64,000 nt of DNA from Marsupella aquatica (Eukaryota; Plantae; Marchantiophyta): positions 15,997,037 through 16,061,036 of the forward strand of contig OZ316891.1 in NCBI GenBank assembly GCA_973895155.1, given 5' to 3'. A program made the position numbers and the translations under genes. The notes under the pieces are model-generated. The model was not told the origin of the DNA, made no database searches, and saw only the letters and a program-made list of their open reading frames with translations. Shown one piece after another: positions 12,421 to 40,888 of this stretch; position 1 is the stretch's first letter; each line of letters starts with the position of its first letter.

Positions 12421-13060
12421 CTGTAAAAAAAGCCGAAATTAGTTCACAATATTAATTGAGAATATAATAATCTAAATAATCTTAAAATCGAAACCCCAAA
12501 ATATAAATCTCAAAACTTACCATTAAGCACTGGATCAAGTTCGTTCCCTCACCAAAGCATATAGCCCATTCCCCACATTGGACAAATTGACTAACAATAC
12601 TTTCAAAGAATGGAAGTATCTTTTCTGGGGAAGGTGTCGTGAACTCGCCGCTCTCTTCAAAATTGGCTATCTTCTCAATCCGATATTTGGAGACCAATTG
12701 GAACTCGAGGGCTTGTGGATCGCCCATTGTGCTGAAGGCCAAGCTGTGAAAAGCGTAGGTTACAATAAGCTTCTTCTCCTTCGGCCGCTTCTGAATATAA
12801 TGGCTATCGACAGCAACGTAGTGTGTGTACTTCCCTAATTCCCGTTTGATTAAGTAAGACTCAATGGGAGAGGCTACAATAATAACCACATGGTGTGGTT
12901 TTGCCCCTATCTCGCTAGTAGCACGAAATAACCCCTCATAGAATGAGCAATTTGGCGGACGCAAATCTTCCATTGATGAGGGATCAAAATAAATCAAGCT
13001 TGCAAGGTTCTTGTCTTCACGTATGATACAGTCTGCAAACCCAGCATTTTGTATATCCTA
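12421..13060 (-). CDS. Degenerate beta-class N4C/N6A DNA methyltransferase-like domain (part of the giant gene)
   Basis: ASLIYFDPSS (compare DLIxTDPPY), GAKPHHVVII (compare LKPGGxxxI), and EKILPFFESIVSQFVQCGEWAICFGEGTNLIQCLM|DAGSNV (compare EKPxxLxxxxIxxxSxxGDxVLDPFxGSGTTxxAAxxLGR), in the beta-class motif order. Confidence 0.45.
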
Positions 13061-15285
13061 CAGGGATCGCAATTTCAGCCTCTCACCGACCGGCCGCACT
13101 AGTTGGTTTCCTTGACTATCAACTGATTTCTGTATTCCTTCCACCAACCTGTAGAATATCGGGTCGATCTCTTTCAACAAATTATCATTACTAATATTTA
13201 TATTTAAGCACTTCTTCAGATAACCACTCAACGCATCTCTCAACTGCTTCAGCACCATCTTGTCAAGCTTAAAGCGATCAATCATTCCTTTGACCCGCAA
13301 TTTCCGTGCTGAATCTGTCAGACTTTTCAGCTCCGTTCGGGTGGATGTATCCCCGTTGAGTTTACTCAATAATAAAATCTCAAACTCAACTTTCATCTTC
13401 TTCTTTATACAGAATTGCTCCAAACTCATGCTGGTCGTTGACAACACTGGAGCCTCAGAGGACTTCCTCGCCTTCCCAGATTTCACTTTGATGCTTTGGT
13501 TTTTGAGTATAGACAGTCTTCCGCTCAACATATATTCCGCTGCCTTTCGAAGAACCGAGTCTGAGCACCCTTGACAAGAACGGAACGTCTTCTTCAAAAG
13601 ATGATAAGCACATGGATTATCCACAATTTTGACGGCGCCCCTCTGTAAAATTCCGTTGTAAATTACAAGCTCTCCTATCCTTGATAGTACGTAGACCTCC
13701 ATCCACTTCTTGAATGTTTCGTCCTCCATTGTAAAGAGAAACGGAGCCAATTCTCCAAATTTCATCATTTCGTTCTTCCCCATTTGAGCCCATGGGCAAA
13801 CAAAACTCGTAGCTCTCATAAATACCTGAAAAACAATGGAAACATGACAATTCTAAGATTGACGCGACCGTTCGCGTGAGAAAAATTATAAGCTTGACGC
13901 GATCGTTCGTGTGACAAAAGTTTAAACGATAATGTGATCGAAGAGGGTTATTTATATACCTTCCAATTTGGATGACGATAATGTGATCCAGGCCGCCCAA
14001 ATGAGTTCCAGATATTACGACACTGTCGTACAATGGTGAGAAACTGTCCTTCTTCCATTGATGTTTGATGACAGTGGTTCAGAGCTTTCGATAATCCCAT
14101 CAAATGAACATTATTGTCGTTGTTGAGCGTTGCCCAAAACATTACAGCTTCTACAGTACCGCAAGTGTCTCGTCCAACTTGGCTGACTTTGTCGTCCTCT
14201 TTCAGCAATTTGTACGCCATTATTGTGTGCTAGCCTCCGAGTATCCAAAAATGACTGGTCATAATGTCCTCCTCCTTTGGCGCCGAATCGTAGGGTGCCC
14301 CATTGTAGTCGGGATCTCTGTCGGCCTCCGACTGAACCCACTTCACAGGGACTAAAAAGCAGCATCGCTTTTCAAACTTTATAGCCGAATGAGAGAGGAG
14401 TGAATTCTTTAGCCTATCTGTGTAATCCTGGTTCCACTCTCGGCACTTGATGTGGTCCGGTGCAAGATGACAACGTGATGTCTCAACAAAAAATGACTTG
14501 CTGTTAAATATATTCACAACATTATATTCTTTGAGGAAAGAATCGAACAGAGCCCTGACATTCGCTGAGGTAATTACTTTCGGAAGATTCTCCACCGAGT
14601 ATACTTCAACCTTGGTCACTGGCGGGGCCTTTCCCAAGCGAAATCCCTGGTTGAAAGGAACTCTCTGGAACTCAAGTACATCAATAATGTATTGACAAAT
14701 CAAATCTCCCGTTGATCCCTCTGGATCGGAAGGGTATCCCACACTAGTAACCTTTTCCAAGGCGTGCCTTGCACCTAGAAGATCATCGATTCTGGGCTGA
14801 TTGAAGGTTACATATTGCGTTCGATCCAAACAAATGCTTATTTTGTCCTCCTACTGGTCGTCGCTGACTAGCAGAACCAATCCCTCTGTACACTCTTTAA
14901 CTTTCATGCTCTTCTCAAAGAAACACCCAAGAATTTGTGATCTCTCCAAAACTGTAGCTTTATCATTTTTTGCCACCACAAGACGGACAGCCCCATTGCG
15001 AACAACTATTCCAAAATTGGATATCTCAGTCGATTCAAAGAGATGGATACTCTTTGTCTCCGTTGTTCTCTCTTTGATTGACTTTCCTCGATATGCAAGT
15101 ATGGATGTCTCCGCGGGAGTCATTTTTGTCTTGGCTTTCTTACGAGAAGCAGCTTAAGACGAGTTTTTTTCCCGCTTTGAAGTTCCAGTAGGATCCATTC
15201 TGAAACAGACAAATATTGAAAGTTAAATGTTTATTATAAAATACTAACACACGCATGGTCGTGTCATGCCGAATTACATTTTAGG

Positions 15286-17297
15286 ATGGCAGTGGTGTTC
15301 CCCATGGATCAAAAAGCAGTACGATCCTTCTTGGGCTGTGTAGGGTATTACCGTCAGTTCATTAAAGATTTTGCTAAAATAGCTTTGCCCCTAACAGAGA
15401 TGATGAAAAAGGATGCGGTGATCGAGGAGACCCCAAGGAGACGGGTTGCTTTCGAAGAACTCCGTAAAAGACTCACCACCGCACCTATCATGGTCACTCC
15501 AGACTGGAACAAGGAGTTCCACGTGTATGTCGACGTGTCAGGGTTTTGTATCGGGTTTGTGCTTAGTCAGCTTGATACAGACGGACGCGATCACCCCATC
15601 TACTTCGCTAGCCGACAATTATTCACAGCCGAAAAAAATTATTCCCCCACGGATCGAGAGGCACTGGGCATAATCTACTCATGTAAGAAGTTCCGGCACT
15701 ACCTGCTTGGCTACAAGGTCATCTTCCACACGGATCACGATAGCTTGAAGTACATGGTCAACAAAGCAGACGTAACGGGACGGATAGCCCGTTGCTACTT
15801 CTCCAGGAATTTAACTACAAAGTTCGGGTTCGGCCAGGAAAGGCACACCTCAATGCCGACTTCTTTTCACGGCTGGACGGTGTACCAGTCGATCAGCCAA
15901 TTGATGATATTTTTCCGGATAAGGAGTTGTTCCACGTAGGGGAGGGGACACCAACATGGTATGGCTCGATAATCACCTTCCTTTTAACAGGCTGCATCCC
16001 TAACGACATCAATCAGGAGGCCGCCGCTGTGTTTCTACGGAAAGCCGGGCCTTACGTCATGGTACAGGGTCACCTACATAAGGAAGGAGTTAATGGGAAG
16101 TTACGACGCTGCTTGGAGTATAAGGAGACGCTTATCGTGATGCGGGCCTTGCATGAAGAAGAAGCTGGAGGCCATTTTGCGGCGGTCACGACAGCTCGAA
16201 AGATTCTGGACTCGGGGTATTGGTGGCCAACGTTGCATCGGGATGTACAACGCTTCATTAAGGGCTGTGACCTGTGTCAGCGGGCTGGGGCCCCGAGACG
16301 GGCTCATCATCACCCGCTCACATCTGTGCTCCCATTGGCACCCTTCAAAAAATGGGGAATTGATTATATCGGGCCATTTACTCCCGTTACCCAAAGGCGA
16401 AGATGCAGGTACATCCTACTAGCTATTGATTACTCCACCAAGTGGGTCGAAGCACGGGCTACGGTAAAGGACGATGCCGCAACCAGTGCCAGATTCTTAT
16501 ATGAACAGATTTTCACCCGATTCGGCCCGCCCTTAGAATTGGTAAGCGACCGTGGAACCCACTTCCTCAATGACACCGTAGCCCAGCTTACGGAGCATTA
16601 CCTAGTCAAGCACCGCAAGACTACCCTGTATCATCCTAAAGCCAACGGGATGGCGGAGAGGGCAAATGGTATCATTGGGAAGATCCTCAACAGAACTGTA
16701 GCTGCGCACAAAACGGATTGGGATGATAAGTTGTACGCAGTGGTGTACTCGTATAATCTCGCTTACAAAACTACTACGAGTCACAGCCTGTACTTTCTCG
16801 TGTTCGGCCAACATTCGTTAGTGCCCGTTGAGTTTGAAGTACACACTCCACGAGTCAGCATTCGGGGTCGCTTACCTGAATCTGAAAGTTCGTCAGACCG
16901 AGCTTATCAGATTGAAGCCTTGGAAGAAGCACGGCTACTAGCAGCTCGACATGCCGTGAAGAAACAGGCAACTTCGAAGAAGCAGCACGACAAAGGACTA
17001 CGGAGGGTCGACGTCGTGGCAGGCGATCTAGTCCTTCTGTACGATAGTAGGTACATGCAGTTTCTAGGGAAGCTTCATACCCGGTGGTTAGGGCCCTTCC
17101 TTGTCAATCAGATCTACCGTAACGGATCTTTGGAGCTTGCGACGTATGCCGGCAATTTACTCCCCACGCGAATCAGCTACGATCGTGTAAAAAAGTACCA
17201 CCATCAAGATGACGCCGCCGAGAGTGATGTTCGCGAGGACGCTTCACAATTAAGCGGGGAGCTATGTGACGCCGCCGGTACGGCGGTTAATGAGTGA
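15286..17297 (+). pseudogene. Gypsy pol fragment (RNase H + integrase), frameshift near 15795
   Basis: VRSFLG..GYYR, VYVDVS, YSPTDREALGI, HTDH; HHCC finger (H..GGH..CDLCQ), KWGIDYIGP, SDRGTHF, PKANGMAER, WLGPF. Confidence 0.93.
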
Positions 17298-17621
17298 TTC
17301 GGTCTAACTGCGCTTGGCACGCGCGTTAGGAGTGTCTTAGACCGCTATTATTAGCATAATGACAGTATTTAGGTAATCATTATGGGTAGGATATCATTAG
17401 GCAATAAGGGGGGATTCAGGTTCGGACTGGCGGTTGGTCGCTATTCGCACACCCGGGTTACGAGCGTGGAGGGGCCCCTCCCTCGGGCCCGTATAACGAA
17501 CTTAAGGAAGCGGCCACTGACACGCGCTGACTTAGACCGGCGGAGTGGCCGGCACACCACAAGCGTGAGCGGTTCAGCCTATGGGCGTCGAGGAGACGTC
17601 GGGGGATCGACAAGCCCTCAA

Positions 17622-17632
17622 GGTATAAAAGG
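17622..17632 (+). promoter_or_regulatory. LTR TATA box
   Basis: GGTATAAAAGG, conserved as GGATATAAAAGG near 31780 in copy 2, about 110 bp upstream of the conserved ATG. Confidence 0.55.
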
Positions 17633-17731
17633 GGAGCCAACCCTTTGTAGTGCACCAGTCCATCAGTCCACGCGCCAGCTTCGACCCCAGCTCTCTCGTT
17701 CGCTCTAAGTCGCCACTACTATCTCCCCTGA

Positions 17732-20367
17732 ATGTCGCACATGATCCTCTCCAGCTCGGCCATTCAATTATGGACGCAGTTCCTATCTACCGGAAGGCAC
17801 TTGGCCGACTCATTGAAACACGCCAACCCGCGCCGATACGAAATCGAACGCGAGTACGAGAGACCCATCCGCCTAGCAGGACGACACCACTACATCCTTA
17901 ACTTTGACTACCCGTCTCAGAGCGAGCTTTACCAACCTGCAGAGGTATCCGGGTACTTCTTCAACGGAGACAAATATATCGGGTTCTGGGAAGCATTGCT
18001 TCGGCTTCCGGATGAGGTCTTCAATATCCCGGGTACGATCGACTTGCAGCGACATCACTTCGACCACATCCCTGCTCAGGTTCGGGCTATCATCAACAGT
18101 GAGTCCAGCACTACCCGTTCGACAAGGTCGTCTGCACTCACTTCGGAGAACTTCTACCAGCACCTACAGAGTTTCATAGTAACTCGGCCAGCAACCAACA
18201 TGACCAACTCAGTCGTACCCGTACCCGTACCCATACAACCTCAGGCTCAGCTTCAGCTTCAGCCTCAGCCGCAGCCTAGCCAAACCCCACCACCGATCGC
18301 CCAGCCAGCACAAGTACGCTCCGTCATCAACGTTGTGGATCTTAGCGATGACGACGAGGCTACCCTACCCTTGACCAGGCGGCCCAGAGGAGCAAGCGCT
18401 TAGGGGGCCAACACTATATCGTCCCCACCCCCTGCTCTGACCCCAGGAGCGGCCCCGGCAGACAACATGGTGACCGTGGCCGACCCGGGCCCGTTACGAA
18501 CGGCAGTGGCACTACCCAGGCCCGATCGGGAGGATGGGGAGGTGTCACCTTCCCCGAGCCAGTCACGGGGGAAGAAGAGGAAGGAATCCGCCACTGCATC
18601 CGGGTTACCGTTGGCCACGGTAGCCTGGCCAAGGTGACGATGCACCGCATGGGGGAAAACGTTCACAAAAACATCCTCCATCCCAAGCATGCGGTGTACC
18701 TAAAGACTCAGGGATTCGAGCACCTCGCCTCCCTCCCCTGGAACACTTGCAGGTACTACAGGGAGGACATGACGGAGTTCGTCAGGAATTATGACGACAC
18801 GCGTCAACATACTCGGCTGCGGGGAAGGAGTATGTCCCTCACGGAAGAACGGCTCAGGATGATCTTCGGGTTACCCGAAGGTGACCATCGAGTTGAATCA
18901 CGGGCTCCCGTGGGCAAGGGAGCCAAGTACCAATCTTCAAGTTTTCCCTCAGAGGGAGCAGTGGACAACGGGTTCGTGATGAAGACCTGCCTCATCCCCG
19001 AGATAGCTGAGCGACTGCAGTTCCAGAGGTACGCCCTCCACATGATGGAACCCCGGGGAGAGATCTCCGCCGCCCAGGTTATCCAGGTCGAGAACTATCG
19101 ACCTAGGAGGTGGGCGTCGTACTTCGCTAAGAAATTCCATGAAGAGATGGAGCGGCGAAGGAAGACGCTGTACATTGGCAGGAAGGCGTATTTTGCTAGC
19201 CACATCGAGATCATTCTTGAGTGGTATGCCCGGTTTGATCGACGAACCCTTCCCCGTGTCAACGTTACAAAACTGGTCCCAGCTAGGTGGGTTTTCCCGG
19301 CCTTGGAGAGGCGGCCCCAACCCGAGGCCCGAAGTCCAGCGAACACGCCAGCTTCACTCACCCCACCTCCACAAGTAGCTGTAGTTGTAACCGAGGAGGT
19401 ACCGGATGGGTCGGGCGTCGCAACCGTTGATGCGACCCCACAGGCCGGGCTAAGTACCGAAGTCGGTACGGTGGAGGTCTTACCCGAACCCGGTTCTCCT
19501 AAAGACCCACCGGTGGCTATTCCCGAGAACCGGACATTGCTACAGGAGGACGCTCCAGCCCCTTCCAACATTACGTCCCCAGGGCTGGACGTCACTGCCC
19601 CAGCCCCCGCGCGTGTTGACGTCTGCCCATGCCCAACTCCGGACAGATACAACTTGGACCACCCGGAACTCTTCGTACCGGGTACATTTCTGAACGGGCT
19701 TCTGGGAGAATTCTCTCATCAGATTGCCCGGGATACCGGGGAGTTCATGGCCCGGAAGGTAGCCTATTTCTTCAATCAGGAGTTGGTTGCCGTAGTAAAG
19801 GCAGGTCGGGCCCAGTCAAAGGCCCTTCAGAGGATAGAGCGATACCGGGTGGAGTCCGTGTACCTAAAGAACAAAGTTGCGGCTCAAGAGGCTGAGCTTC
19901 GGCAACTACGACCCAAGGTTGCAGCCGCCGATGAGCTGTTAGCAAAGGTGCACGCTCTTACCGCCCTAGCCGAACAGGCCAAAGCTAGGAACGAGGCCGA
20001 GATTACACGACTCAGGAACCAGATTGATAGTTTGAAGAATCAAACTGTCACCTGGCAGAAAGACCTGGAGGAGGCCGAGGAACGGGCCCAATAGGACACG
20101 GCGGAGATAGCCACGCTGTAGGCCGAGGTGGCGCGGCTCCAAACCGAGGCCGAGAAGCAGGACCAGCTGGCGGGTAAATTGACAAGTGACGCCCAGCAGC
20201 TGGAGGAGGCTTGTCAGGAGGCAGCAGAGGAGACAGACGCGGCGAGGCAAGAGAACAAATCTCTGCTGAACCAGGTCCAGCTCCTCAAGGCGGACAATGA
20301 CAGGCTTCGAAGGCAGCGGGATGGCCGCTCCCATTCGGGCGGCTCTGGCAAGCGTGCTAGGCATTAG
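17732..20367 (+). pseudogene. LTR-embedded protein of about 870 aa: plant transposon protein/PMD-like domain, Pro-rich linker, C-terminal coiled coil
   Basis: One reading frame broken by TAG codons at 18401, 20092 and 20119 and a 1-nt deletion near 18624 (intact in copy 2). Motif GFEHLASLPW...EFVRNY...LRGRSMSLTEERLRMIFGLP. Confidence 0.75.
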
Positions 20368-21329
20368 CAGCAGAGTAGGAATAGATTAGGATTAGGACGG
20401 GCTTAGTCAGGCTCTTGGGACAGGCACCTGCCTTAGGTACAGCAGCGCTGCCGTGTTGTCCAGCCTGCGTAGATTAGGATCTTCTAATAAGACACAGCCG
20501 TTTTCCGGCCTGACTATCAGCTTAGTTAGGACCTTAGTCAGCGAATCTTCGGCGAGAGGACACCCCATCCCTCGTCCCTTAGTATTTAGTGCACCCCTCG
20601 GTAGAGGCCCACGGGGTTTTTAGTTGCAAAGTTGGGCGTCCGCGGTATGTGCGGGGAGTCCCGACCTCTAGGAATGAAAGAGTACCAAGGGGAGGGGGTA
20701 GGACTAAGCTCGCCGGGCGAGTGTGGAGCCGGGCTCCATTGTAGTGTGCACCATCGGCCTTGAACCTGTTCATTCCGGGGCTGTCGGGTCAACTAAGTGT
20801 ACGCATATGTTCCCTTTGCAGTAAAATCCTTTCCCATCATTTTCCTTTGTGTAAATCGAGATTGTATGCATGTGCGCATGTATGTGTGTGGGTTTCTCGT
20901 ATATGGGTGGCAGCGCCAGGCCGAACGCACTACCCGAGACGTGCACAGGGTGCAGCCTGCGGGTAAGTGGTTGCGAGCACGGGTTGAGGACCTGTATCAT
21001 CAAATCCGGATTGAAGGCGGATAGCACGAAGGCTTAGAAGCCCTTAAGCCAGGGTCGATCCTGTTATCAACTAAGATACGTTCCGGCGGCGGAACACAAA
21101 CCATACCTAGGAGGTGTCCATATTTAGCAGTATGCGCACTTAGCGCTAGTTTACGAGAGTAAGGTGCATTACGTGCTTCCCTTCCTGCCCGAACCACCAG
21201 ATTTACGAGGGATGTGACCGTCTAAGCTGAAGTCTGAGTTAAGGCCGCAGCCGATGACGTGACAATAAACAATTCTTTGAGAGACTGTGATTTTTTGGGG
21301 TCACAACGTGACAAATCATAAATGTTGCT

Positions 21330-21820
21330 TCGTCCTCTAATAGAACCAGTCAATTAAAGAGCTACCTCAAACGCGACTGGTCGCGTCAACTGATCCTAAA
21401 TGGAACGGTACCTCCTCTAACAAAACCAATCAATGAGAGATCTACCTCAGACGCGACTGGTCGCGTCAACTGATCCTAAATGAAACCTTACCTCCTCTAA
21501 CAGAACTAGTCAATGAGAGATCTACCTCAGACGTGACTAGTCGCGTTAACTGGTCCTAAAAGGAACCTTACCTCCTCTAACAGAACCAGTCAATGAGAGA
21601 GCTACCTCAAACGCGACTGGTCGCGTCAACTGAACCTAAACAACTATATCCACTGAACCTTCCTTGTGGAGATTTGGATATGGTACGCGCTTAGTAAATC
21701 TATCCAGTTTCCTTCTCACACGCGACTGGTCGCGTCAACTGGTCCTAAAAGGAACCTTACCTCCTCTAACAGAACCAGTCAGTGAGAGAGCTACCTCAGA
21801 CGCAACTGGTCGCGTCAACA
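21330..21820. repeat. 80-bp tandem repeat, each unit carrying palindrome B
   Basis: Palindrome recurs at 21371, 21451, 21531 and 21611 (period 80), then at 21720 and 21800. Confidence 0.92.
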
Positions 21821-22926
21821 GCTCAAACAACTTTTGGACACTAGGATAATACAGTGATACAACTGTGATTACTGACCCGAACGGACAAGGAAATCCGAGT
21901 AAGCATGATTTCATTCATTTGTATTCATTCATGAACTTTACAATAATTCAGATGTTTGAGCTCTGTCATTGTGAAACTATTATATATCAGAAGTTTAGAG
22001 AATGATTCAGCTAAGATGATTCAATTTAGCAGTCTACTGGTTGTATTCATCAATTAAAGGATTCAGTGTAATGAGATTCACATAACATGAGAGTTTATAT
22101 GATTAAATTCACAGCGTGCAAGTTTGTAATGACTTACTTAAGACGATTCAGGTTGTATTTTAATTAGTGAGTTTGTATGATTCAGACATATTTGAGTTTA
22201 TAGACAAACCGCATTATGAAAACTCAGCTTAACAATCAAGAGAAATTTTAGCAAACAACAATCAACACCAGCAGAAAATGTAGAAATTGCACCTGAATTC
22301 TGAAAAATTGATGTAATCGTCTGAGAGATTGACGTCCAAGCACTTGAAGACCTTGCTGCGGCATTCCAGAAAGTAAATATAAGATTGAAGATATTAATAT
22401 GCTAAGCAACAACAACACAACTTCTATACTTCTATACATAGAGCTTCGCTGCCACCAATTGAATAACATGTGCTTAATGCTAAGGAACTCATTATGTCGA
22501 GTTAGAAAGACTCTTTCAAAAGTACAATCAAAGCTGTCGATAGACAAACTGAGCATGAATAAAAGCGCACTAAACCTGAAGATTGAAAGAGGTGAAACAA
22601 ACCTGAATGATGAATGGAAGGAGCTTAAACAAGCTGCCAAAAAGTAGTTTGAGTTGCTGAAACACGTTGATCGAGCTGATATGAGCTTAAAATTGGCTGA
22701 CACGAGCTGATACGAGCACTCCCAAAAAACTAGCTGCAACGAACCCAACGGGCTCCTAAGAATCCCTTCGAGCAAACTAGAAGTGAATACGAGCTGTAAA
22801 TGCAAGCTGCAATGCGCCAACAAGCTCCTGGTCGAAACGATCGACAACTACTAAGAGCTGCAACGCGCCGACAAGCACCTGACCACAACGAACGAGCTGC
22901 AACAACAAAAATGAAATCCAGGGCAG

Positions 22927-24245: not shown

Positions 24246-24249
24246 GAGT

Positions 24250-26099: not shown

Positions 26100-26268
26100 T
26101 GTTGAGCATAGACGACATTTGTAACAACAAGCCCATGAACCATCCAACATACAAGAGTCAACACAGAGAGATACGTGGTTCACCTCCACATGAGGCTACG
26201 TCCACAGGAACACACGAGAGTTTTACTATACTCTAGGTCGACAGGCCATACAAGGCATCCATAGCACA

Positions 26269-29200
26269 TGTAGTTTGTTATGAAGAACCAAAAACACACT
26301 TAAAGGTCTTCAAACTCGGTATTCATTCCCGTAAAGAACAAGATGGGGTTGGTTTGATAGATTTAAACAATAATAAAGAACTAAAGATATTTTCCACACA
26401 TAGTAATCAAGTTTGATTACTTCATTAAGGTATTTTGAAGATCGCTCCACAGCGGTGAGTAGTTTTCAATGATAACTCAGCATCATGTAAACATAAATTA
26501 ATGAAAAGGGAATGATTAACAAAATACACCAAAAATATCTTAAAGTATGCTAAGGGAGTCTGGAATTGACCAAGGTTGCTCCTTAGACATAAGTCAAAAT
26601 GAAATGACTTAAGGATTCAAATCCATATTGCTTTTCAGGTCTAAAATGCTTACTAGAGTACCTTTTAAAATACCGTCAACATGTCTTATCCTTTCTTTCT
26701 AAGTGGTACTCAGATAAAATCTAAAAGGTAGCTACTTCAACATTTAGATGGTACTAAGCAACACGAAAGAAAATCCATCAATTTCAATGAGACTTAAACT
26801 CAATGAGTTAACTTTAAGAACTCAAGAGATTGCAATGAGTCACCAACAAGGAATCTATCATTACAACTCAAAAGATTTGCACAAAAGGAATTTTACTTCC
26901 TGTGTTTATAATCATAGGTAAAAACACAAGAAGGAGGTAAGTCTCTCCAAATGTTAAACCTGATCTCGAACTCATAGATTCATGATCAACTAGTTTAACA
27001 CAAGGAAAAGGCAAAAATGCATAACTTAACCATAAACTACACTAGTGGTGGAGAGGTCTTATAGTAAAAACCTATAGGGTAAGAGGTTATAGGGTCGAAG
27101 AGACATGCCTCTTCATACTCCTCAAAAAGTCAAAACAGCGATTCAGTAAGTGAAAAGCCGGAAAATGGCTAAGTAAGAACCCGTAAAAGCGTAAAGGCGT
27201 AAACTCGTAAAAGCATAAAAACATAAAGGCGTAATCCGTAATTGCGGTACAACTAAAAACTTATCAAATTCAACTATTTTTAACTTCTTAACTATAAGTC
27301 AAAAAACTCTGAGATTTTGCCAACAGATTTTCCTAGGTACAGACTATATACTAAAGAAGTATGACAGCTTTTAAAGCTCTAGAGCACATTTTGAAAAATA
27401 GGGAAATATGCACTATTCTTAAAACTAACTAAAAACACTTAGACTACTCAAGCTTGTTGTCGGATGTCTTCTGGTTCGAGTAGCTCCACTGCTTTAACAG
27501 TTCAATTTTATGTAACTTTCATCAGCTCAGCCTGGCGTGGGGATCCTCGAGAGTAGGGTAGGCATCTCAATTGCCTTTCAGGATATATCAAGGGCATTCT
27601 CTTCCTTAGATAACATATGTCTATTCGAAGAGCTTCTCTATACATCCCAATCACGTCATAATTATTGCAAGTAGCAGCATATACTTGGGGATAATGGTAT
27701 AGGAATTCATCAGAGTTCAGCATCCTGGAATAGAAAGGGTGAAGCCTCCATTTGACATCTTTGAAATATCGGTTGAAGTTGGCTAGAGTTTGAGAGGTGA
27801 CATTGTTCCAGATTCTCTATTTCTCAGCTAATGAACTGGTTGAAACAAGGGTAACCTTGGGCTCTCGAGGAAGGTAAGCGTTCTGGGGAGAAGTAGATTT
27901 CTTACTCTGCATGAGAAAAGAAACCACAAAATCTAGGGCATAAGCTGCCAAATTTCCAAAATATGCCAGAACTAAATCTGGATCCTCCACCTCCACATCT
28001 CCTTGAAGCAGCATCACAACAAGAATGGGTCGGAAGTAGAGAGAGTCAGTCCAGAACTCATCGAATTGTGCCATCTCTACTCTGGAAGTTCCAAAACACC
28101 TAAGGTCGAAGATATAACTGGCCTCTATCTTTTTGAGATAGTAGTATCTCCAAAACTCTCCAACCGATGGTCTGTTGGCCTGCATTATCTTACAGGTCTC
28201 CACATACCTGTGCACTTGGGACTCTGGATGTCTCGGGTATCTACTCTCAATGGTGGCATTCCGAGGTGTTTGAGTAGATGAGGTGACAACTGCTACTAAG
28301 TTTGGATTGGATCTTAAGGCAGTATCAACATCTTCAAATCCCTACCTTGGGGATGACTCAAGAGAATTATCATAAGATCTATAAGTTTCACCATCTGAGG
28401 GTGGATCAGAGTCTTCAAGCATATCCTCTCTGACGTAAGGGTGCTCATATTGTGACCGATTGTAGGTGGGTCCTTCAGTGGGTTCATAGTTGGAATCAGG
28501 GCTGTAATGTTGCGAACCTGGGCTAGGAGTGGGACTAGCAGTTGGACATTGTTGGATCAAGTTGCTGACCACGGATGCTATCTGTCGAGGTTCACACTGA
28601 AGTATTTCTAGCAAATCATCCACAATAGCTACACAACTGATACTATCTGCTACTGGAACAGGTTCACTTGTTTCTAGGGGAGGGGGTTGTACAGTGACAG
28701 GAGTACAGATCACAAACTCCATTGGTGCTGGTTCTCTTGGGGGAGAGGTCATTCTGACAGGACTTAGCTGATCATGAAATGGTGATCTCAAACTAACAGC
28801 CTCCATTCTCAAATTACTAACAACATCATATAGTCCATCATCACTACAAGTGAGGAGAGATGTCAACTTATCAATAAGCTGCTGATTCGACTCTGCTTTC
28901 GAAGGAGTGGGCCTGGTGGTCTCATGAGGAGTAGCATCAGTTGGTGTAGCAACATCGTCTTGTTGATGAATGCTCCTTACTTCTTCAGCTTCTAGTGGAT
29001 CTGCATCCATAGTCCGGCTAGGGGTATTCTCATTACTTATTGATTGGCAAACAATTTCCCTGCTATGCATAGGAGAATGTGTAGGAACTTCTAATGAAGC
29101 ATCCTCCATAGGAACATCAGCATTCTCCTCAACGTTCTGATCATTCAAATTCAATGGGGTAACATGTACAATGTCTTCCATGGGAATTTCTTCTTCAATA

Positions 29201-30284
29201 CCCAGGTCAATTAGGAGTAACCCCCTCTCTGTCTCTTCCTCAAGATGTAAACAGTCATGGGCATAATAGAGTTGAGAGAGATAATTCTGCAAGCAAGTGG
29301 TCCTCCCTGATTCCAAGCTCCTTACTTGATCCTTCATTACATTAAACAGAAGTAGGGCCCAATTTACTTTTATAGCTCCACTGTGAGCAGCTACAATGGT
29401 GTTAGCCAAGGCCACAGGGCAGAGGGTTGGCTTTTTCGGATGAAGAATGGGTACCAGAAATTCCATGAGCACTCTCAATTCAGGATAAGTACACTGGGAC
29501 AAGTTCCAGCCATTTTTGAGATTTCGAGTTCCTGAGAAGTATGGAGTAGATAAGTCTTGCTTCTTGGAATATAATGCCTCTCCTTCTGACGGGCATCCAA
29601 AGGCATAAGCAATTTGCTCAACAGTCCACAGGCTGGGGTGAGCTCGAATTGTTCGCTTGAATTCAATCGGGATGATAGTCCCCTTTACAAAATCTTTCAA
29701 GTAGGAGTCGAGCTCGACATTCCAGGGAATCTTGAGTAAGCGTTCCAATCCTAAGTGCTATAAAGAGTCTTGTAAATTAGAAAGACTATCAAGCGCTCGT
29801 GGTATACAAGCTGCCACTACTTTTGAGACTGCTAGAGCTTCAATTTGATATTGTTCCTTAGCACCCAGGTTCGCCATAGCTGCAACGATAATTTGCGTGC
29901 TGCAAAGATTACTTTTGAAGGGAAAGAGCAAGTGAATAGGGGTGGTGAAGAGATAAGAGTGAGCACCTGAACTCTGTGCTTGGTTCCTATCAAGGCATGA
30001 AGTCCCTGTTCCGTTGCTAAGTCCCGTTGCGAAGTTAGCCGTAGCGCCTTAACGTGAACTTTCCTTAAACGCGTAAGGCATAAACCATAATCCCATATCG
30101 GCGTAAACTCGTAACATCGTAAACCCGTAAACCCGTAACACTTATACGCATAAATGCGTAATCCCGTTATAAAGTATACCCGTAGTTTACACTTGGCACT
30201 TTAACAGCAACAGCAGGCTTAAACACTGTAAAAAGTTTAAATTTTTCAGTAATTTCAGGTTTTCGGTATTACCCAATACTCACA
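26269..30284 (-). mobile_element. Family B 4-kb solo-LTR-like element, copy 1, inserted in the Copia 3' LTR
   Basis: TG...CA ends; 5-bp TSD GCACA/ACACA; the empty site is visible in the other Copia LTR near 44483; homologous to 36808-40883. Confidence 0.88.
27448..29877 (-). pseudogene. Family B LTR-embedded protein (about 810 codons, several premature stops)
   Basis: ORFs 28342-29748, 27817-28215 and 27508-27723 are in one frame and colinear with 37260-39659. Confidence 0.8.
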
Positions 30285-30671: not shown

Positions 30672-31055
30672 CTACAACTGCAAAACCTGCAAAGTAGCAC
30701 GGTGTCTTGAGAAACTCTCCAAAGGAATTACTTTGGTAAAGGCATCAACGGGATTAAGCTTTCCATCAATCTTGACTAGCTCAAAAGTTTTATCAGATAC
30801 TACTTGCCTGATAAAATGGTACCTGATATCAATGTGCTTCACCCTGCTATCCATCACCTGGTTAGCAGCCAAGTGAAGAGCACTCTGACTATCACAATTT
30901 AGAGTCATTTTTCCATGCTCTAAACCCATCTCCGCGATCAACTTGTCCAACCAAATTGCTTCCTTTGCTGCTTCTGCTACTGTAACATACTCTGCTTCTG
31001 TAGTAGACTGAGATATACACTTCTGCAAGGTAGATTTCCAGCTGATAGTTCCTTT
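30672..31055 (-). pseudogene. Copia RNase H
   Basis: ISWKSTLQKCISQSTTEAEY, CDSQSA, KHIDIRYHFIR, NPVDAFTK. Confidence 0.95.
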
Positions 31056-34000
31056 GATAGGGCTTACCAGATTGAAGCCCTAGAAGAAGCTCGACTACTA
31101 GCAACCAGGCATGCGGGTAAGCAGCAGGCAGCTTCCAAGAAGCAGCACGATAAGGGACTACGGAAGGTCGACGTCATGACGGGCGATCTAGTCCTGTTTT
31201 ACGATAGTAGGTACATGAAATTTCCTGGGAAGCTTCATACCCAATGGTTAGGGCCTTTTCTAGTCAATCAGATCTACCCTAACGGATCTTTGGGACTCGT
31301 GACGTACGCCGGCGATTTACTCCCCACGCAAGTCAGTTACGATCGTGTGAAGAAGTATCACCATCAAGACGACGACACCGATAGTGATGTTCGCGAGGAC
31401 GCTTCACAATTAAGCGGGGAGCTATGTGACGCTGCCGGTACGGTGGGTAATAAGTGATTTGGCCTAACCATGCTTAGCACGCCTGTTAGGGGTATGTTAG
31501 GCCATAATTATTAGAGTAACGACAGTATTTAGGTAGCCATTATGAGTAAGAAATCATTAGTCAATAAGGGGCATTCGTGTTCGGGCCGGCGGCGGGTCGC
31601 CATTCGCACGCCCGGGTTGCGAGCGTGTAATGGGCCCCTTCCTTGGATCCGTATAACAAACTCCGGGAGGCGGCCACTGACACATGCTGACCCGGACTGG
31701 TGGAGTGGCCGATACACTGCAAGCATGAAAGGCTCGGCCCATAAGCAACAAGGAGGCGTTGGGCGACTGACGAGCTCTTAGGATATAAAAGGGGGCCGAT
31801 CCTTTGCAGTGCACCAGTTCTTCAGTCCACGCGCTAGCTACGATCCCAGTCCTCTCGACCATCCTTAGTCACCTTCTATCTCCCCTGAATGTCGCACACG
31901 ATCCATTCTAGTTTGGCCTTGCGATTCTGGACGCAATTCTTGTCTAGCGAGCTGCACTTGGCCGACTCATTAAAACACGCCAACCCGCGATGATACAAGA
32001 TCAAACGCGAGTACGAGAGAGCCATCCGCCTAGCAGGCCGCCATCACTATCTCCTTAACTTTGATTACCCATCCCAGAGCGAGCTTTACCGACCCAAAGA
32101 AATATCAGGGTACTTCTTTGATGGAGGCAAATACATCGGCTTTTGGGAGGCATTGCTTCAACTTCCGGACTCGGTCTTCACTATCCCGGGCACGATCGAC
32201 TTACAGTGGCACCACTTCGACCACATCCCCGCGCGGGTCCAGGCTATCATCAACAACAAGTTCAACACTACCCGGTCGACAAGGCCGTCTACACTTGCTT
32301 TGGAAAACCTCCATCGGCACCTGCAGAACTTCATGGCAACTATACCATCAACGACCGGTGCCGGCCCACCCGAGCCCACGCCCGTACTCACACCCACACC
32401 CCCTCGGCCTCAGCCAAGCCGATCCATGCCACCGGTCACACCACCTTTTTGAGTACAATCCGTGGTGAATCCAGTGAATATTAGCTCTGAGACGAGGAGG
32501 CTCACCCTCCTCTGAATCGACGGCCGCGAGGTACAACTCTACAGTCGCCAAACAACCTGGCACCACTCCAGCAAGCCCGAGGGGATAACACGGTGACTCT
32601 AGCGGCCCCGGCGCCAATACTCACAACGGTAGCACTACCGCCTCCAGATAGGGAGGATGGGGAATTGTCCCCCTCTTCGAGTCACCTCAAGAATCAGTCC
32701 CGGGGAAGGAAGAGGAAGGAACCCGCAGCTGTATCCGGCTTGCCTTTGGCCACGGTTGCGGTAGCCAAGCTGACCATGCATCGCATGGGGGAGAATGTTC
32801 ACAAGAACATCCTCCATCCCAAGCATGCATGCTATCTAAAGACCCAAGGGTTTGAGCACCTCGCCTCTCTCCATTGGAACGGAAGCAGGTACTATGGGCA
32901 GGATATGACGGAGTTCATTCAGAACTTCGACAAGGCCCGTCAACAAACCCGAGCGCACCAGAGAGTGATGTGTCTCAATGAGGCATGTTTGAAGATGATT
33001 TTTGGCCTACCCGAGTGGATAAACCGGGTAGAGTCACGGGCTCCTGGGGGTAAGGGAGCTAAATACCAGTCTTCTAGCTTTCTGACCAAGGGAGCAGTGG
33101 ACAACGGATTCTTGATGAGGACGTGCCTCATCCCAGAAGTGGCAGAATGCCTGGAGTTCCAGCGGTATGCCCTCCACATGATGGAACCCAGAGGCAAAAT
33201 ATTGGCCGCCCAGGTCATCCAGGTGGAGAACTATCGGCCCAGGAAGTGGGCGTCCTTCTTCGTCAAGAAGTTCCACGAGGAGATGGAGTGGAGAAGAAAG
33301 ACTTTATACCTTGGCGGAAAGGCGTACTTCGCTAGCCACATCAAAATCATCATCGAGTGGTACGCTCGTTTTGACCGCCGTAGCCTCCCACGTATCAACA
33401 AGCCCAAGCTAACCCCATCAAAGTGGGTGTTTCCAGCCCAGGTGAGGCAACCACAGCCCGAGGCCCAAAGTCTGGCAGCTGTAGGCCCTGCTACCCCGGC
33501 CCCGCAAACCGCTGCTGCCGCCCCGCCAAGCATACCCATGGACGTTATCGCGACCTTAGACGCGATCAATCGGGTCAACACAATCGAAGTCGGGCCAGAT
33601 GAAGCCATACTCGAACCCGATACCACGATAGCCGAGGAGATTCTGCCACCTCCCGCGGTTGTGCAGGAGAACCGCCCTGCTCCAGTGGAACCAGCCCCTT
33701 CGACCAACTTACCTCAAGGGCTGGATGTTTCCACTCCTACTCCCGCACGGGTTGGAGTCTGCCCGTGCCCGAATCCAGATGGACATAGTCTAGACCATCC
33801 AAAACTCTTTGCGTCGGGCACGTTTCTGAACGGGCTGTTGGGAGATTTCTCTCAACAGATCTCATGGGACACCGGGGAGTACATGGCCCAGAAGGTGGCC
33901 TACTTCTTCAACCAGGAGTTGGTTGCGGCTGTAAAGGTAGGACATGCGCAGGTGGAGACAACGTAGAGAATAGAGCAATACCGGGTTGAGTCTGCCTACC

Positions 34001-35393
34001 TAAAGGACGAAGTGGCAACCCTGGAGGCCGAACTCCAGCAACTACGGCCTCAGGTAGCGGCCACTGAGGATCAGGTTGCCGAGGCCAGGGCCCGAGCAGC
34101 TTTAGCAAAACTGGCCGGGCTTGGAAAGGACGCCGAGATTGCACGGCTCCGGACCAAGATCGATGGTTTGAAGGGACAAACCGTCATTTGGCAGAAGGAT
34201 TTGGAGGAAGCTGACTCTTGGTCTCAGCGGGACTTAGCCGAGATTGACACCCTAAAGACAGAGGTGGCGCGGCTTCAAGGAGAAGCCACAAAGCAGGCCC
34301 AGTTGGTGGATAAGCTGACGAGCGATGCCCAGCAACTGGAGGAGGCATGTCAGGAGGCCGCGGAAGAGGCGGATGCAGCAAAGCGGGAAAACAAATCTTT
34401 GCTGGACCAGGTCCAGCTACTCAAGCAGGATGCCAACAGGCTTAGGAGGCAACGGGATAGTCGCTCCCACTCAGGCGGCTCTAGCAAGCGTGCCAGGCAT
34501 TAGCGGCAGAGTAGGATTAAAATAAAGTTAGGAATAGCTAAAAGAGGCTACAGGGACAAGAGCTTGCCCTAGTTAAAGCGACATTGCCTGCGTAGATTAG
34601 GATCTTCTAATAAGACAAGTTGTTTTCCGGCCTAACAGTTAGCTTAGTTAGGATCTTAGTTAGCAAATCTTCGGGCACAAGGCCACTCCGGTCCTCGGCT
34701 CTTAGTATTTAGTGCACCCCTCGGTAGAGTACCAAGGGGGGGTTTTTTTTGTTAGTCTCAGAGTGGGGCATCCACGGTATGTGCGGGGAGTCCCAATCTC
34801 TGCGAGTGAAAGAGTACCAAGGGGAGGGGGTAGGACTAAGCTCATCGGGCAAGTGCGGAGCCGGGCTCCGTTGTAGTGTACACCCTCAGCCTTGGACCTG
34901 TTCATTCAAGAGCTTTCGGGTCAACTAAGTGTATGTGTATGTCCCCTATGTAGTAAAATCCTTTCCCATTATTTCCTTCGTGTAAATCGAGATTGTATGC
35001 TTGCGTGCGTGCATATGTGTGAATCTCGTGTATGGGTGCCAATGCTTGGCCAAACGCACTACCTGAGCCATGCACGGGGTGCATCTTGCTGGTAAGTGGT
35101 TGCGAGCCCAGGTTGAGTGACCATATCATCAAATCCGGATCAAAGGCGGAAAGCACGAAGGCTTAAAAGCCCGTAAGCCGGGGTCGATCTTGCTATCGAC
35201 TAAGGTACGTTTCGGCAGCGGAACACAAACCATACCTAGGAAGGGTCCGTAAATAATAGTAGACACACTTAGCGCTAGTTTACGTGAGTTAGGTGCATTT
35301 TGGGCTTCCCTCCTTGTCCGAACCCTCATATTTACAAAGGATGTGCCTGTCTAAGCCGAAGCCCGGTTTAAGGCCTAGGCTGACGACGTGACA
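31055..35393 (+). mobile_element. Family A Gypsy copy 2: integrase tail plus 4-kb LTR (31425-35393), inside Copia pol
   Basis: Colinear with about 16895-21264, with the same PPT and TGTGACG...CGTGACA ends. Its 5' part and the Copia RT/RNase H junction were removed together. Confidence 0.88.
31889..34503 (+). pseudogene. Family A LTR-embedded protein, copy 2
   Basis: ORFs 32153-32452, 32593-33966 and 34012-34503 are homologous to 17732-20367, with the same C-terminus RSHSGGSxKRARH. Confidence 0.75.
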
Positions 35394-36807: not shown

Positions 36808-39800
36808 TGTAAGTAGTGGGTATTTCCAAAATCATGAAGAAACTGAAATTTTTTAAATTTTTTATGGGGTTTAACCTCTAATTGTTGATAACAGAATGGA
36901 GATAGCATTCTGTCTACAAGTTACGGTTCCCAAGTTTAAAGTAAGTTTACGAGTAAACTCCTGTTACTAGTTATGAGTTACTAGTTACGAGTTATGAGTT
37001 ACGGGGTTGCGACAGTATACTAGTTACGAGTATACTAGTTACGACTTACTAGTTAGGGCTTTACGAGTTGTGCCTTACGAGTTGGCGACCGATGATCGCG
37101 ACGTCTTACGGCTACTTCCAACGGGACTTAGCAACGGGATGGCGAACGCGAATTGAAGAAAAGGCAAATTAGACTTCGGGCGCTCACTCCTGACTTAATT
37201 CCTGCCACCTCTGTTGATTCTACCAGCTTCCCCACTCCTTAGCGCACTCAACATAACGGATGAGAGCTATGGCAAACCTCGGCATTGATGAACAGTACCG
37301 AGTTGACACTCTGGCAATTCCTAAGAGCATAGTCGCCCGAATTCCACCAGCGCCCGATAGCTATGCAAATTTACGGACTTCCTTACAGCAGCTAGGTTTG
37401 CAGCATCTACTTGTCATTCCTTGGGAAGTAGAGCTCGACACATATTTGCAGGATTTTGTAAAGGGGTCAGTGCTTGCTCCTGAATTTCGATGGACTATTC
37501 GAGCTCGACCCAGCTTATGGACTGTGGAACAAATTGCTTATGCCTTCCGCTATCCTTCAGAAGGAGAAGGATTGTATTCGAAGAAGAAAGATTTATCTAC
37601 ACCTTACTTCTCTGGGACTCGCAATCTCACCAATGGCTGGAATTTAACACAATGTATTTATCCAGATTTGAGAGTGCTTCTGGAATTTCTAGTACCCATT
37701 TTACACCCGAAGAAGCCAACCATCTGTCCAGTGGCTTTGGTGAATACAATTGTAGCCGCACACAGTGGATCTGTCCAGGTGAATTGGGCCCTGCTAATTT
37801 TCAATGTGATGAAGGATCAGGTGAGGACCATGAAGGCAGGTAGACCCACTCATTTGAAGATTTATTTGTCTCAACTCTATCATGCTTATGATTGTTTATA
37901 TCCAGAGGAGAAAACGGAAAGAGGGCTACTCCTGATTGAGTTAGGCATTGAAGAAGACCTAAGTATGGAAGAACCAGTGGATGCTGTTCCCCTGGATTCT
38001 CATGATCAGAATGTGGATGTTGAGATGGAATTAGATACGACACCTGCTCATAACTTAGAGTTGGTTCGACACCCTCTGCATAACGTGGTGTATTCACCAA
38101 GAGTTAATATGAGAGATCAACCTGGAGCTGGAGAAGACAGAGATTCTCCTGAGCAATCAGCCGACGTTGCTGAACTGGCTCTTGCAACTGTCAACCTAAG
38201 GACCAACTCCTCCACTCCTTCAAAGGCAGAGTCGAATCAGCAGCTTATTGATAAGTTGACATCTCTCCTCAGTTGCAATAGTGATGGACTATATGACGCT
38301 GTTAATAATTTGAGAATGGAGGCTGTTAGTTTGAGATCACCATTTCATGATCAGCTAAGTCCTGTCAGAATGACCTCTCCCCCAAGAGAACCAGCACCAA
38401 TGGAGTTTGTGATCTGTACTCCTGTCACTGTACAACCCCCTCCCCTAGAAACAAGTGAGCCTATTCCAGTAACAGATAGTATCAGCTGTGTGGCCATTGT
38501 GGATGACTTGTTAGAACTACTACAGTGTGAACCTCGACAGATAGCATCTATGGTCCGCAACTTGATCCAACAATGTCCAACTGCTAGTCCTACTCCTAGC
38601 CCAGGTTCGCAACCTTACAGCCCTGATTCCAACTACGAACCCACAGAAGGACCCACCTACAATCGGTCACAATATGAGCACCCTTTTGACAGAAAAGATC
38701 TACTTGAAGACTCTGATCCACCCTCAGATGGTGAAACTTATAGATCTTATGATAATTCTCTTGAGTCATCCCCAAGGCAGGGATTTGAAGATGTTGATAC
38801 TGCCTTAAGATCCAATCCAAACTTAGTAGCAGTTGTCACTTCATCTACTCAAACACCTCGGAATGCTACTATCGAAAGCAGGTACCCTAGACGTCCTGAG
38901 TTAGAAGTGCACAGGTATGCCACCACTTGCAAAATAATGCAGGCCAACAGACCACCGGTTGGAGAGTTCTAGAGATACTACTATCTAAAGAAGACTGAGG
39001 CAAGCTACATCTTCGATCTTAGGTGTCTTGGTACTTCTAGAGTGGAAATGGCACAATTTGATGAGTTCTGGATTGACTCAATATACTTTCGGCCTATTCT
39101 TGCTATGATGCTACTCCAAGGTGATGTAGAGGTAGAGGATTCAGACTTAGTTCTGGCATACTTTGGAAACTTTGCAGCCTATGCCTTGGATTTTGTGGTT
39201 TCCTTCCTAATGCAGAGCAAGAAGTCTACTGCTCTACAACACAATTACATACCACAAGGACCCAAGGTTACCCTTGTTTCAACCAGTACATTGGCTGAGA
39301 AACAGAGAATCTGGAATAATGTCACTTCTCAGACTCTAGCTGAATTCAACCGATACTTCAGAGATGTCAGATGGAGGCTTCAACCCTTCTATTCCAGGAT
39401 GATGAGTAGTGATGAGTTCTTGTTTCATTATTCTCAAGTGTATGCTGCTACCTGCAACAACTATGATGTGATCGGGATGTACAGAGATTCATGTTATTTG
39501 ATGAAGAGAATGCCTTTGATGTACCCTGAGAGACAACTGAGGTGCTTACCATACTCCAGAGGATCCCCACGCCAAGCTGAACTGATGGAGGTTACTCAGA
39601 ACCGAATTGTTACCCTTGTGGAGTTGCTGGAACCAGACGACATCCGACAGCAAGCTTGAAGAAGTCTTTATGTTCTTAGTTAGTTTTTAGAGTAGTGCAT
39701 CTTATCTGATTTTTAGAAATGTGTTCTAGAGCTTTGGAAGCTGTCATACTTCTTTAGTGTATAGTCTGTACCTAGGAAAACCTCTCGGAAAAATCTCAGA

Positions 39801-40883
39801 GTTTTCTGACTTATAGTTAGGAAGTTAAAAATAGTTGAATTCATCAAGTCTTTACTTTACCGCGATTACGAGTTACGACTTAGCTTTTACTAGTTTAAGA
39901 GTTACTAGTTTACGATTACGAGTTCCGATAGACAGCCGATTACGAGTTAATAGTTTACTAGTTACGAGTTCATACTTAGCCATTTTTCCGGCTTTTCACT
40001 TACTGAATCGCCATTTTAAAATTTTGAGGGGTATGAAGAGGCATGTCTCTTCGACCCTGTGACCTCTCACTCAGTAGATTTTGACTATAAGATAGCTCTA
40101 CCACTAGTGTAGATGATGGTAAAGTTTAGCAATTTTTGCCTTTCCTTGGTGTTCTGCTAGTTGATCATGAATGTTAAGAGTTCGAGATCAAGTTTGACAC
40201 CAAGAGAAGACTTTCCTCCTTCTTGTGGTTTAATCCTTTGAATAAATCATGGGAAGTAAAATTCCAATTGTGTAAATCTTATGGGATCTGATGACAGATT
40301 CCTTTTTGGTGATTCATTACAATCTCCTGAGTTCTTGGAGTTAACTCATTGCGTTTAAGTCTTATTTGAAATTGATGGATTTTCTTTCATGTTGCTTAGT
40401 ACCATCTAAATGTTGAAGTAGCTACCTTTTAGATCTTATCTGAGTACCACTTAGAAAGGATAAGACATGTTTACGGCATTTTAAAAGGTACTCTAGTAAG
40501 CATTTTAGATCTGAAAAGCAAACGTGGATTTGAATCCTTAAGTCTTTTCATTTTGACTTATGTCTAAGGAGTAACCTTGGTCTATTCCAGACTCCCTTAG
40601 CATACTTTAAGATATTTTTCCTTGTGTTTTGTTAATCATTTCCTTTTCATTAATTTATGGTTACATGATGTTGAGTTGTCATTAAAAAACACTCACCGCT
40701 GTGGAGCGATCTTCAAAATACCTTAGTAAAGTAATCAATCCTGATTACTATGTGTTAAAGAGAGTTCTTAAACTCTCATTTGTGTTTTTATGTATCAAAT
40801 CAACCCCATCTTGTTCTTTACGGGAACGAATACCGAGTTTGAAGACCTTTAAGTGTGTTTTTGGTTCTTCATAGCAAACTACA
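36808..40883 (+). mobile_element. Family B 4-kb solo-LTR-like element, copy 2, inserted in the Copia integrase
   Basis: TGTA...TACA ends; perfect 5-bp TSD CACAT (36803-36807 and 40884-40888). Confidence 0.92.
37260..39659 (+). pseudogene. Family B LTR-embedded protein (about 800 codons, one premature stop)
   Basis: ORFs 37260-38972 and 39042-39659 are in frame across a TAG that is TGG (GEFW) in copy 1. N-terminal domain GLQHLLVIPW...DFVKG...NGWNLTQC...VNWA. Confidence 0.82.
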
Positions 40884-40888
40884 CACAT

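Follow-up and report, generated by a model that had tools for sequence, protein, structure and literature searches.

In a 64,000-nucleotide stretch of the genome of the liverwort Marsupella aquatica (GenBank assembly GCA_973895155.1, contig OZ316891.1, positions 15,997,037 to 16,061,036 of the forward strand; this whole stretch is called the window below, and positions are counted from its first letter) we have found two copies of a 4-kb unit that begins with TG, ends with CA, directly follows a polypurine tract (PPT) candidate at the end of a Ty3/Gypsy pol region and contains a long accessory gene. The gene-bearing unit is very probably the long terminal repeat (LTR) of a non-chromovirus Ty3/Gypsy retrotransposon. 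Two further units, designated family 2 to distinguish them from this first pair (family 1), have a similar layout and encode a homologous protein, and no DNA similarity was found between the two families. The protein core is predicted to adopt a fold like that of the VANC and PMD proteins, and clusters of short, family-specific motifs accompany the gene in all four units. We give about an even chance to a system in which an LTR carries a gene whose VANC-like product binds motifs in that same LTR and works against silencing. An initial annotation, made from the letters of the window alone, had already placed a gene inside a 4-kb LTR and supposed that solo LTRs would retain it; the predicted fold and the motif clusters are additions to that proposal.

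Gene-bearing units at the end of a Ty3/Gypsy element

The pol region of family-1 copy 1 (15285..17297, + strand) is truncated at its 5' end and comprises the tail of the reverse transcriptase (RT), RNase H and integrase (Pfam RT_RNaseH, 1e-31; Integrase_H2C2; rve), and loose contig ends at 15284 indicate that other copies of this pol extend further upstream. RNase H precedes integrase in the Pfam matches, which is the Ty3/Gypsy order, and the same matches in copy 1 include neither a chromodomain nor an extra RNase H between RNase H and integrase or after integrase. The integrase frame ends 11 codons inside the 4-kb unit, and it is not followed by the chromodomain that marks the chromoviruses. 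The absence of an extra RNase H does not decide on membership of the Athila and Tat groups, since Tat elements of liverworts are reported to lack it too (PMC13468544).

The PPT candidate AAGCGGGGAG, which includes one pyrimidine, lies at 17252..17261 (+) and is separated by a 3-nt spacer from the TG of the unit, and the copy-1 integrase frame reads across the tract and the spacer into TGTGACG at 17265. An identical tract stands directly upstream of copy 2, at 31412-31421. Copy 1, likely a 3' LTR, is 4000 bp long (17265..21264, +) and has the ends TGTGACG and CGTGACA; copy 2 is 3969 bp long (31425..35393, +), holds a broken gene at 31889-34503 and adjoins Copia RT sequence at its right end. All that is left of the copy-2 pol is an integrase tail (31042..31457, +); the loss of its 5' part also took about 200 bp from the surrounding Copia element. 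From this tail onward (31042-35393) the two copies align over 4437 columns with 75% identity (integrase tail 85%, part upstream of the gene 79%, coding part 72%, distal part 82%), and the alignment breaks right after TGACA, the flanks beyond the units showing 54% identity in 46 aligned bases. The initial annotation's account of an integrase followed at once by PPT and TGTGACG, and of a second copy with the same layout and ends, thus holds for both copies. Copy 1 is inserted beside an 80-bp tandem repeat family (21333-21832) that is very abundant in the surveyed sequencing runs.

In the elements described so far, the usual place of accessory open reading frames (ORFs) is between pol and the 3' LTR (PMC7264820, PMC6317226), and an ordinary Athila- or Tat-like element might be read here as well if the PPT were a 12-nt purine run at 20687..20698 (+), the LTR the last ~570 bp (TA...CA), the gene a single internal 3' ORF, and the tract at 17252 a relic or a central PPT. 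The purine run is identical in both copies, sits in a 90%-identical block and is perfect, while the AAGCGGGGAG tract is imperfect, and these properties weigh against the longer LTR. It is followed, however, by TA rather than TG, a start without a match to the right end, and among the 185 and 211 TG positions checked in copies 1 and 2 none 3' of the gene combines a purine tract with a terminal match in both. No internal direct repeat that could serve as a short LTR pair was found inside the family-1 unit, and, provided that the tract at 17252 is the PPT in use, there is no space between pol and PPT for the internal extra ORF of an Athila or Tat element. The TA start, together with the depth, the contig with a free left end and the family-2 units described below, makes the ordinary arrangement improbable.

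Contigs from four public sequencing runs give the gene a summed depth 4.2-5.7 times that of pol, and in each of the four runs even the lowest of 17 bins within the unit stands above the highest of seven pol bins (six of 30 bins were left out: the one at the junction, three in the flanks and two where the element is truncated). The distal end shows no doubling, the ratio of distal part to gene being 0.48-1.27 instead of the 2 or more expected of a short LTR, and there is no step at 20699. One contig links the start of the family-1 unit at 17265 to sequence other than the PPT, any estimate of how often such free left ends occur depending on this one joint, and the right-hand flank appears without the element in contigs of two runs. 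We take the depth as slight support for an LTR, because values summed over contigs give no copy number and cannot rank parts of the gene. Searches for the exact junction pattern gave no match in metagenome contigs, and pattern matches to related loci in metagenomes (74, with P0051), viral sequences (three) and prokaryote genome contigs (27) yielded no confirmed locus.

Stand-alone units that begin with TG, end with CA, are flanked by 5-bp target site duplications (TSDs) and have almost no terminal inverted repeat (TIR) bear the usual signature of solo LTRs. Family-2 unit B, of 4076 bp (36808..40883, +), lies in a Copia coding frame between perfect 5-bp TSDs (CACAT) and is likely a solo LTR; unit A, of 4016 bp (26269..30284, - strand), lies in a Copia LTR with a TSD matching at four of five positions, and the other LTR of that Copia element retains a single copy of the target as the empty site. 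The two units are 81% identical, their terminal inverted match is limited to about 4-5 nt, and each has a gene of ~800 codons beginning 410-460 bp into the unit: in unit B 797 codons with one internal stop (37269..39659, +), for which an intact 808-residue relative exists (P0057), and in unit A a frame with at least four internal stops (29877-27448, -). TSDs of 4-5 bp are given for LTR elements in PMC6317226. Family 2 provides the stronger argument for an LTR, because its stand-alone TG...CA units with 5-bp TSDs carry a gene homologous to that of family 1, and the same fact tells against the ordinary internal ORF.

The fact that family 2 is seen standing alone only, and that VANC itself is a gene of DNA transposons, would also suit a reading in which the 4-kb units are non-autonomous TG...CA DNA transposons or helper cassettes with a VANC-like gene, family 1 having come to lie beside a Gypsy integrase by chance. 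An exact junction of integrase, PPT and TG that is common to two family-1 copies diverged by 25%, the lack of any further LTR after the terminal CA, and the solo-LTR signature just described make this reading very unlikely, a little more so than the ordinary Athila- or Tat-like element.

Several observations nevertheless weigh against the LTR. The 3'-LTR position is seen in family 1 and the solo-LTR signature, on a unit of the same shape, in family 2, and neither family combines the two; nowhere in the window does a gag or pol adjoin a family-2 unit. Both family-1 copies are 5'-truncated, such that gag, the primer-binding site, the 5' LTR and the TSD fall outside the view, and the terminal inverted match of family 1 is 7/10, a value that other TG positions tie or beat. 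Pol-less derivatives would give the identical depth ratio, the four runs stem from two studies, and one run may be the source sample itself. Stand-alone copies with TSDs, which the initial annotation proposed to look for, are present in family 2, and for family 1, with no TSD visible, the evidence for solo copies consists of the depth and the one joint. The TG...CA ends shared by all four units, the lack of a conserved alternative PPT and TG 3' of the gene, the contig depth and the two family-2 units strengthen the proposal that the gene lies within the LTR; it falls short of proof, with no full-length element seen, and LTR status is for family 1 the likely interpretation.

The accessory gene and its protein

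The gene of family-1 copy 1 runs from an ATG at 17732 to a TAG (17732..20367, +; ~879 codons) and is collinear with an intact homologue, P0044 (906 residues), in which the N-terminal domain, core and coiled coil occupy one frame (tblastn 1e-69 and 3e-12). The copy-2 gene (31889-34503) has ~871 codons. Contrary to the whole gene of about 870 codons announced by the initial annotation, copy 1 is interrupted by stops at 18401, 20092 and 20119 and by a frameshift near 18625, and copy 2 by stops and a frame change; with the two genes of family 2, all four genes in the window are broken, a point against the reading put forward here. At least three of the four breaks of copy 1 are absent from most or many contigs of related copies.

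The comparison of the two family-1 copies that had been suggested as a check gives ratios of nonsynonymous to synonymous substitution rates (dN/dS, computed skipping codons with gaps or stops) of 0.20 in the N-terminal domain, 0.08 in the core (dS 1.8, near saturation) and 0.14 in the C-terminal part, similar to the 0.13 of the integrase tail; the linkers of the gene give 0.54 and 0.39. The family-1 gene, broken in both copies, has evolved under purifying selection, because dN/dS is 0.08-0.20 in the three domains as against 1.0-2.1 in the other two frames of the same segments. In family 2, dN/dS is 0.11 in the core, 0.28 in the middle and 0.08 in the C-terminal part. The dS between family-1 copies is uneven (1.3-1.8 over the core and C-terminal part, 18634-20364, as against ~0.6 over the integrase tail and N-terminal domain, 16887-18163), and this, with a 95%-identical middle block in family 2, may reflect recombination between subfamilies.

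Three parts of the protein can be distinguished: an N-terminal helical domain with no fold match (17732..18163, +; model pLDDT 72, best Z 4.5), a core domain (18634..19311, +; pLDDT 90.9, from 38 sequences) and a C-terminal helical and coiled-coil region (19621..20364, +), for which there are only sub-threshold coiled-coil Pfam matches, on the equivalent of copy 2. With the core as query, the top Foldseek match is DNA-bound VANC21 (9LNJ; probability 0.87, TM 0.53, E 0.16), and among 48,161 chains VANC21 is the sole one with Z of at least 5 (Z 8.1, root-mean-square deviation 4.3, 210 aligned residues, 10% identity; next chain 2.2). The family-1 core is accordingly predicted, with moderate strength, to have the VANC/PMD fold; VANC, MAIN and PMD proteins are described as structural kin (PMC13547354; bioRxiv 10.1101/2024.09.27.615353), and PMD-A clades as Gypsy-encoded (PMC5418596). 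A fold search of BFVD gave no match at E<=0.001.

Other features of the comparison weigh against this assignment. The match is borderline, with a Foldseek E of 0.16 and a Z of 8.1 reached at so low an identity and so large a deviation. A profile search of PDB sequences returned coiled coils only, at E>=0.19, and no VANC; hmmscan found neither Pfam PMD nor DUF1985 in the 38 core members, the single Transposase_32 match having an E of 0.059, and nothing reached the Pfam threshold for the accessory proteins. Moreover, in MAIN and MAIL1 as first described the fold serves silencing rather than anti-silencing (PMC5418596). Leads from the Atlas language model place family 1 near PMD and DUF1985 clusters at 0.85-0.86, i.e., under 0.9, and family 2 near Transposase_32 (23/30 matches) and ATHILA clusters at 0.92.

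The core search recovered 42 matches at E<=0.001 among 1.84 billion representatives. Ten matching clusters were looked up, four of them named Calypogeia fissa, one labelled 'hypothetical protein' only and five without a name. The Calypogeia homologues P0012 and P0054-P0056 make up two split gene pairs that are nearly identical, stand in reversed order on a contig of the same length and have accession numbers differing by about ten. A word-based protein search found 0/7995 candidates for family 1 and 1/653 and 1/7994 for family 2. Homologues of the family-1 core match both family-2 genes (29859-29266 and 37431-37910; tblastn to 2e-6, hidden Markov model 2e-6 and 2e-4), and the cores of the two families are homologous by hhalign (94.5%, E 7.6e-8, 172 columns), the family-2 profile comprising only three sequences.

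Flanking motifs and a possible anti-silencing system

In all four units one motif cluster stands in the first ~300 bp and another just past the stop codon. In family 1 the motif is TTAG (in copy 1, clusters at 17326..17400 and 20364..20623, +), with 20 occurrences against 8.2 expected in the non-coding parts of one copy and 20 against 7.8 in those of the other (seven and eight on the opposite strand), and 7/400 and 0/400 dinucleotide shuffles reach its score as the top score over all 4-mers. In family 2 it is TTACG (in unit B nine copies at 36921..37106 and six at 39866..39962, +), with 17 against 2.1 and 14 against 2.0 expected, 0/400 shuffles in each unit and none on the opposite strand. VANC21 and VANC6 are reported to bind differing short motifs that have accumulated in the non-coding parts of their own elements (PMC5735166); the parallel is descriptive, and cognate binding here is putative. 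Two points weaken the motif evidence: TTAG is short, and its extension to a 5-mer is not significant in copy 2 (140/400); and the counts are not independent, because the two copies of each family are related. The sequence AGTATTTAG, which occurs once per family-1 cluster and resembles the VANC21 motif, was not counted as evidence, repeated 9-mers being expected by chance.

The initial annotation's placing of the gene downstream of a TATA box is borne out by TATAAAA at unit position 360 of both copies (17624..17630, + in copy 1), the only canonical TATA in family 1. TATA-like words also occur 3' of the second cluster, TATTTAG in family 1 and TATAAGA in both family-2 units (at 40086 in unit B), the latter being the sole conserved TATA-like word of family 2 and standing downstream of the gene. 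A TGTA- and GT-rich stretch at about unit +3480-3620 (20740..20882, +; five TGTA in copy 1, eight in the matching part of copy 2) is a candidate poly(A) signal region. The ratio of observed to expected CpG is 0.83-1.07 in family 1 and 1.18 in the family-2 upstream region (36808-37268), as against 0.65 in Copia and 0.35 in the family-2 gene; weak depletion in the former two could reflect low methylation or base composition.

If plus-strand priming takes place at the PPT next to pol, the entire 4 kb from the PPT to the right end would be copied into both LTRs. Since priming would start there, it is very probable that the whole unit becomes LTR, that full elements carry the gene twice, and that recombination between LTRs leaves solo copies that each keep one gene together with promoter, motifs and poly(A) signal. 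The gene may have come to lie in the LTR through the replacement of an older, downstream PPT by a new one beside pol; the conserved purine run at 20687 could be the remnant of the older tract. Because of the two motif clusters, the TATA box at +360, the TATA-like words after the second cluster and the TGTA-rich stretch, we slightly favour placement of the gene in U3 with a promoter of its own at +360, a second promoter, serving the genomic RNA, past the downstream cluster, a short R and a U5 of ~350 bp, in which case the genomic RNA would carry the gene once, at its 3' end. Placement in R or U5 is a distinctly less probable alternative, and still somewhat less so in the form that follows the initial annotation's placement, in which a single promoter at +360 would put the gene ahead of gag on the genomic RNA and the accessory mRNA would be a short transcript that terminates within the 5' LTR. 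The sole canonical TATA of family 1 favours that form, and ORFs upstream of gag are described in Ogre and Retrosat2. It would, however, require either a strong-stop DNA of 3.6 kb or an R of 3 kb with read-through of a complete poly(A) signal, and it takes the TATA at +360 to be the promoter of the genomic RNA, against which stand the second cluster and the TATA-like words 3' of the gene in both families and, in family 2, the position of the only conserved such word.

Given a gene-bearing LTR, we lean, by analogy with VANC, towards a protein that binds the motif of its own family (TTAG-containing in family 1, TTACG in family 2) in both clusters, probably as an oligomer formed through the family-1 coiled coil, and that holds off silencing in trans at every copy of the family. 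A rival to which we give rather less than an even chance, though more than to any of the preceding alternatives apart from R/U5 placement in general, accepts the gene in the LTR and assigns its product another job, be it an LTR activator like Tas or Tat, a tether for integration, an RNA or particle chaperone, or self-repression. The fold itself reveals no function, the family-2 core resembles Transposase_32 and ATHILA clusters, and chaperone and movement roles have been proposed for such ORFs (PMC7264820). Against this rival, the clusters that flank the gene in two families are family-specific and strand-biased, as suits a protein with cognate DNA binding, and the one solved structure that the fold matches is that of an anti-silencing factor bound to DNA.

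More tentatively, and at somewhat less than an even chance, a bryophyte group of Ty3/Gypsy elements would have packed promoter, VANC-fold gene, motif arrays and poly(A) signal into the LTR, with solo LTRs multiplying trans-acting anti-silencing genes until these outnumber full elements several-fold. The families would then have evolved distinct pairs of motif and protein, and retroelements of non-seed plants would have employed the VANC/PMD fold before the VANDALs of dicots did, or independently of them.

VANC21 of the Arabidopsis Mutator-like element VANDAL21 shares with the protein described here the predicted core fold, element-specific short motifs clustered in non-coding parts and a coiled-coil segment, a VANC21 dimer being predicted (PMC13547354). 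It differs in that the host element here is a retrotransposon, that gene and motifs lie in one LTR-like unit, that identity is 10%, and that anti-silencing is conjectural here; VANC has also been described as dicot-specific, and the named homologues here come from a liverwort. VANC proteins belong to Mutator-like DNA transposons, whereas family 1 adjoins a Gypsy pol and family 2 has 5-bp TSDs. Because the host element is the wrong one and no sequence domain was matched at threshold, we do not file the protein as VANC, and we suppose by analogy that it works like one. Nor do we place the element in Athila or Tat, groups defined by RT phylogeny, the RT being missing from both copies apart from its tail in copy 1. 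The accessory ORFs of the OTA elements (Ogre PMD/PF10536, Athila ORF-1/PF03078, and PF20167) resemble it as extra genes on the sense strand of non-chromovirus Ty3/Gypsy elements and through the language-model leads, but published accounts place them in the internal region, on either side of gag-pol (PMC7264820, PMC6317226), rather than downstream of the PPT. The PMD-C proteins MAIN and MAIL are structurally related to VANC and are reported to associate with motifs in promoters and to oppose Polycomb silencing (bioRxiv 10.1101/2024.09.27.615353), but they are products of angiosperm host genes and not borne by elements. The sag gene of mouse mammary tumour virus likewise lies inside a lengthened LTR (PMC3026287), but in a retrovirus with a 1.3-kb LTR, as an unrelated protein expressed from spliced RNAs that start outside the gene's own LTR copy, whereas the unit here is 4 kb long with a candidate promoter inside. 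The rice elements Retrosat2, RIRE3 and RIRE8 combine LTRs over 3 kb with an extra ORF (ORF0), which is described upstream of gag-pol and treated apart from the LTR (PMC3485330). In the literature covered (including PMC12844716, PMC7466625, PMC12885004 and PMC13468544, with few subscription papers and with supplements such as the REXdb files outside the search) we found neither a plant retrotransposon gene inside an LTR nor a retrotransposon gene of VANC fold with motif arrays.

Recombination between LTRs is seen as the means by which plant genomes remove the coding capacity of retrotransposons, an outcome that gene-bearing LTRs would, if real, reverse, and the role of PMD- and Athila-type accessory ORFs is a long-standing question. 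With two families in one genome whose proteins are homologous but whose motifs differ, protein-motif specificity could be tested directly by exchanging the partners, and the pair is also relevant to the question whether retroelements were the origin of the VANC/MAIN fold. Genes in solo LTRs would be annotated as host 'unnamed proteins', as several homologues already are.

Neighbouring elements in the window

The window holds transposons nested in the manner of plant genomes. Between the two 1.1-kb LTRs of a Gypsy element (24247-25372 and 50476-51600, 93% identical) lies a Copia element (about 26099-44663, minus strand), itself the host of family-2 unit A, family-1 copy 2 and family-2 unit B, and this nest extends over 24247-51600. 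A frame near 26000 in the enclosing Gypsy element presumably encodes a chromodomain-like segment, to go by its motif. Further upstream, 3481-7355 (+) holds long broken frames without Pfam matches, which we take to resemble a transposase with a C-terminal SWIM-type zinc finger (CxC...CKH). On the opposite strand, 142-14850 (-) includes a NIF phosphatase (8169-8939), a Ulp1 protease (9119-9967), a 15-bp coding tandem repeat (10876-11682) and a DGNHR motif (1654-2373) that we assume to be ParB-like, and these frames are probably the cargo of a large DNA transposon. A ceramidase domain (PF05875, 2e-28) at 54696-55238 (+) probably belongs to a host gene.

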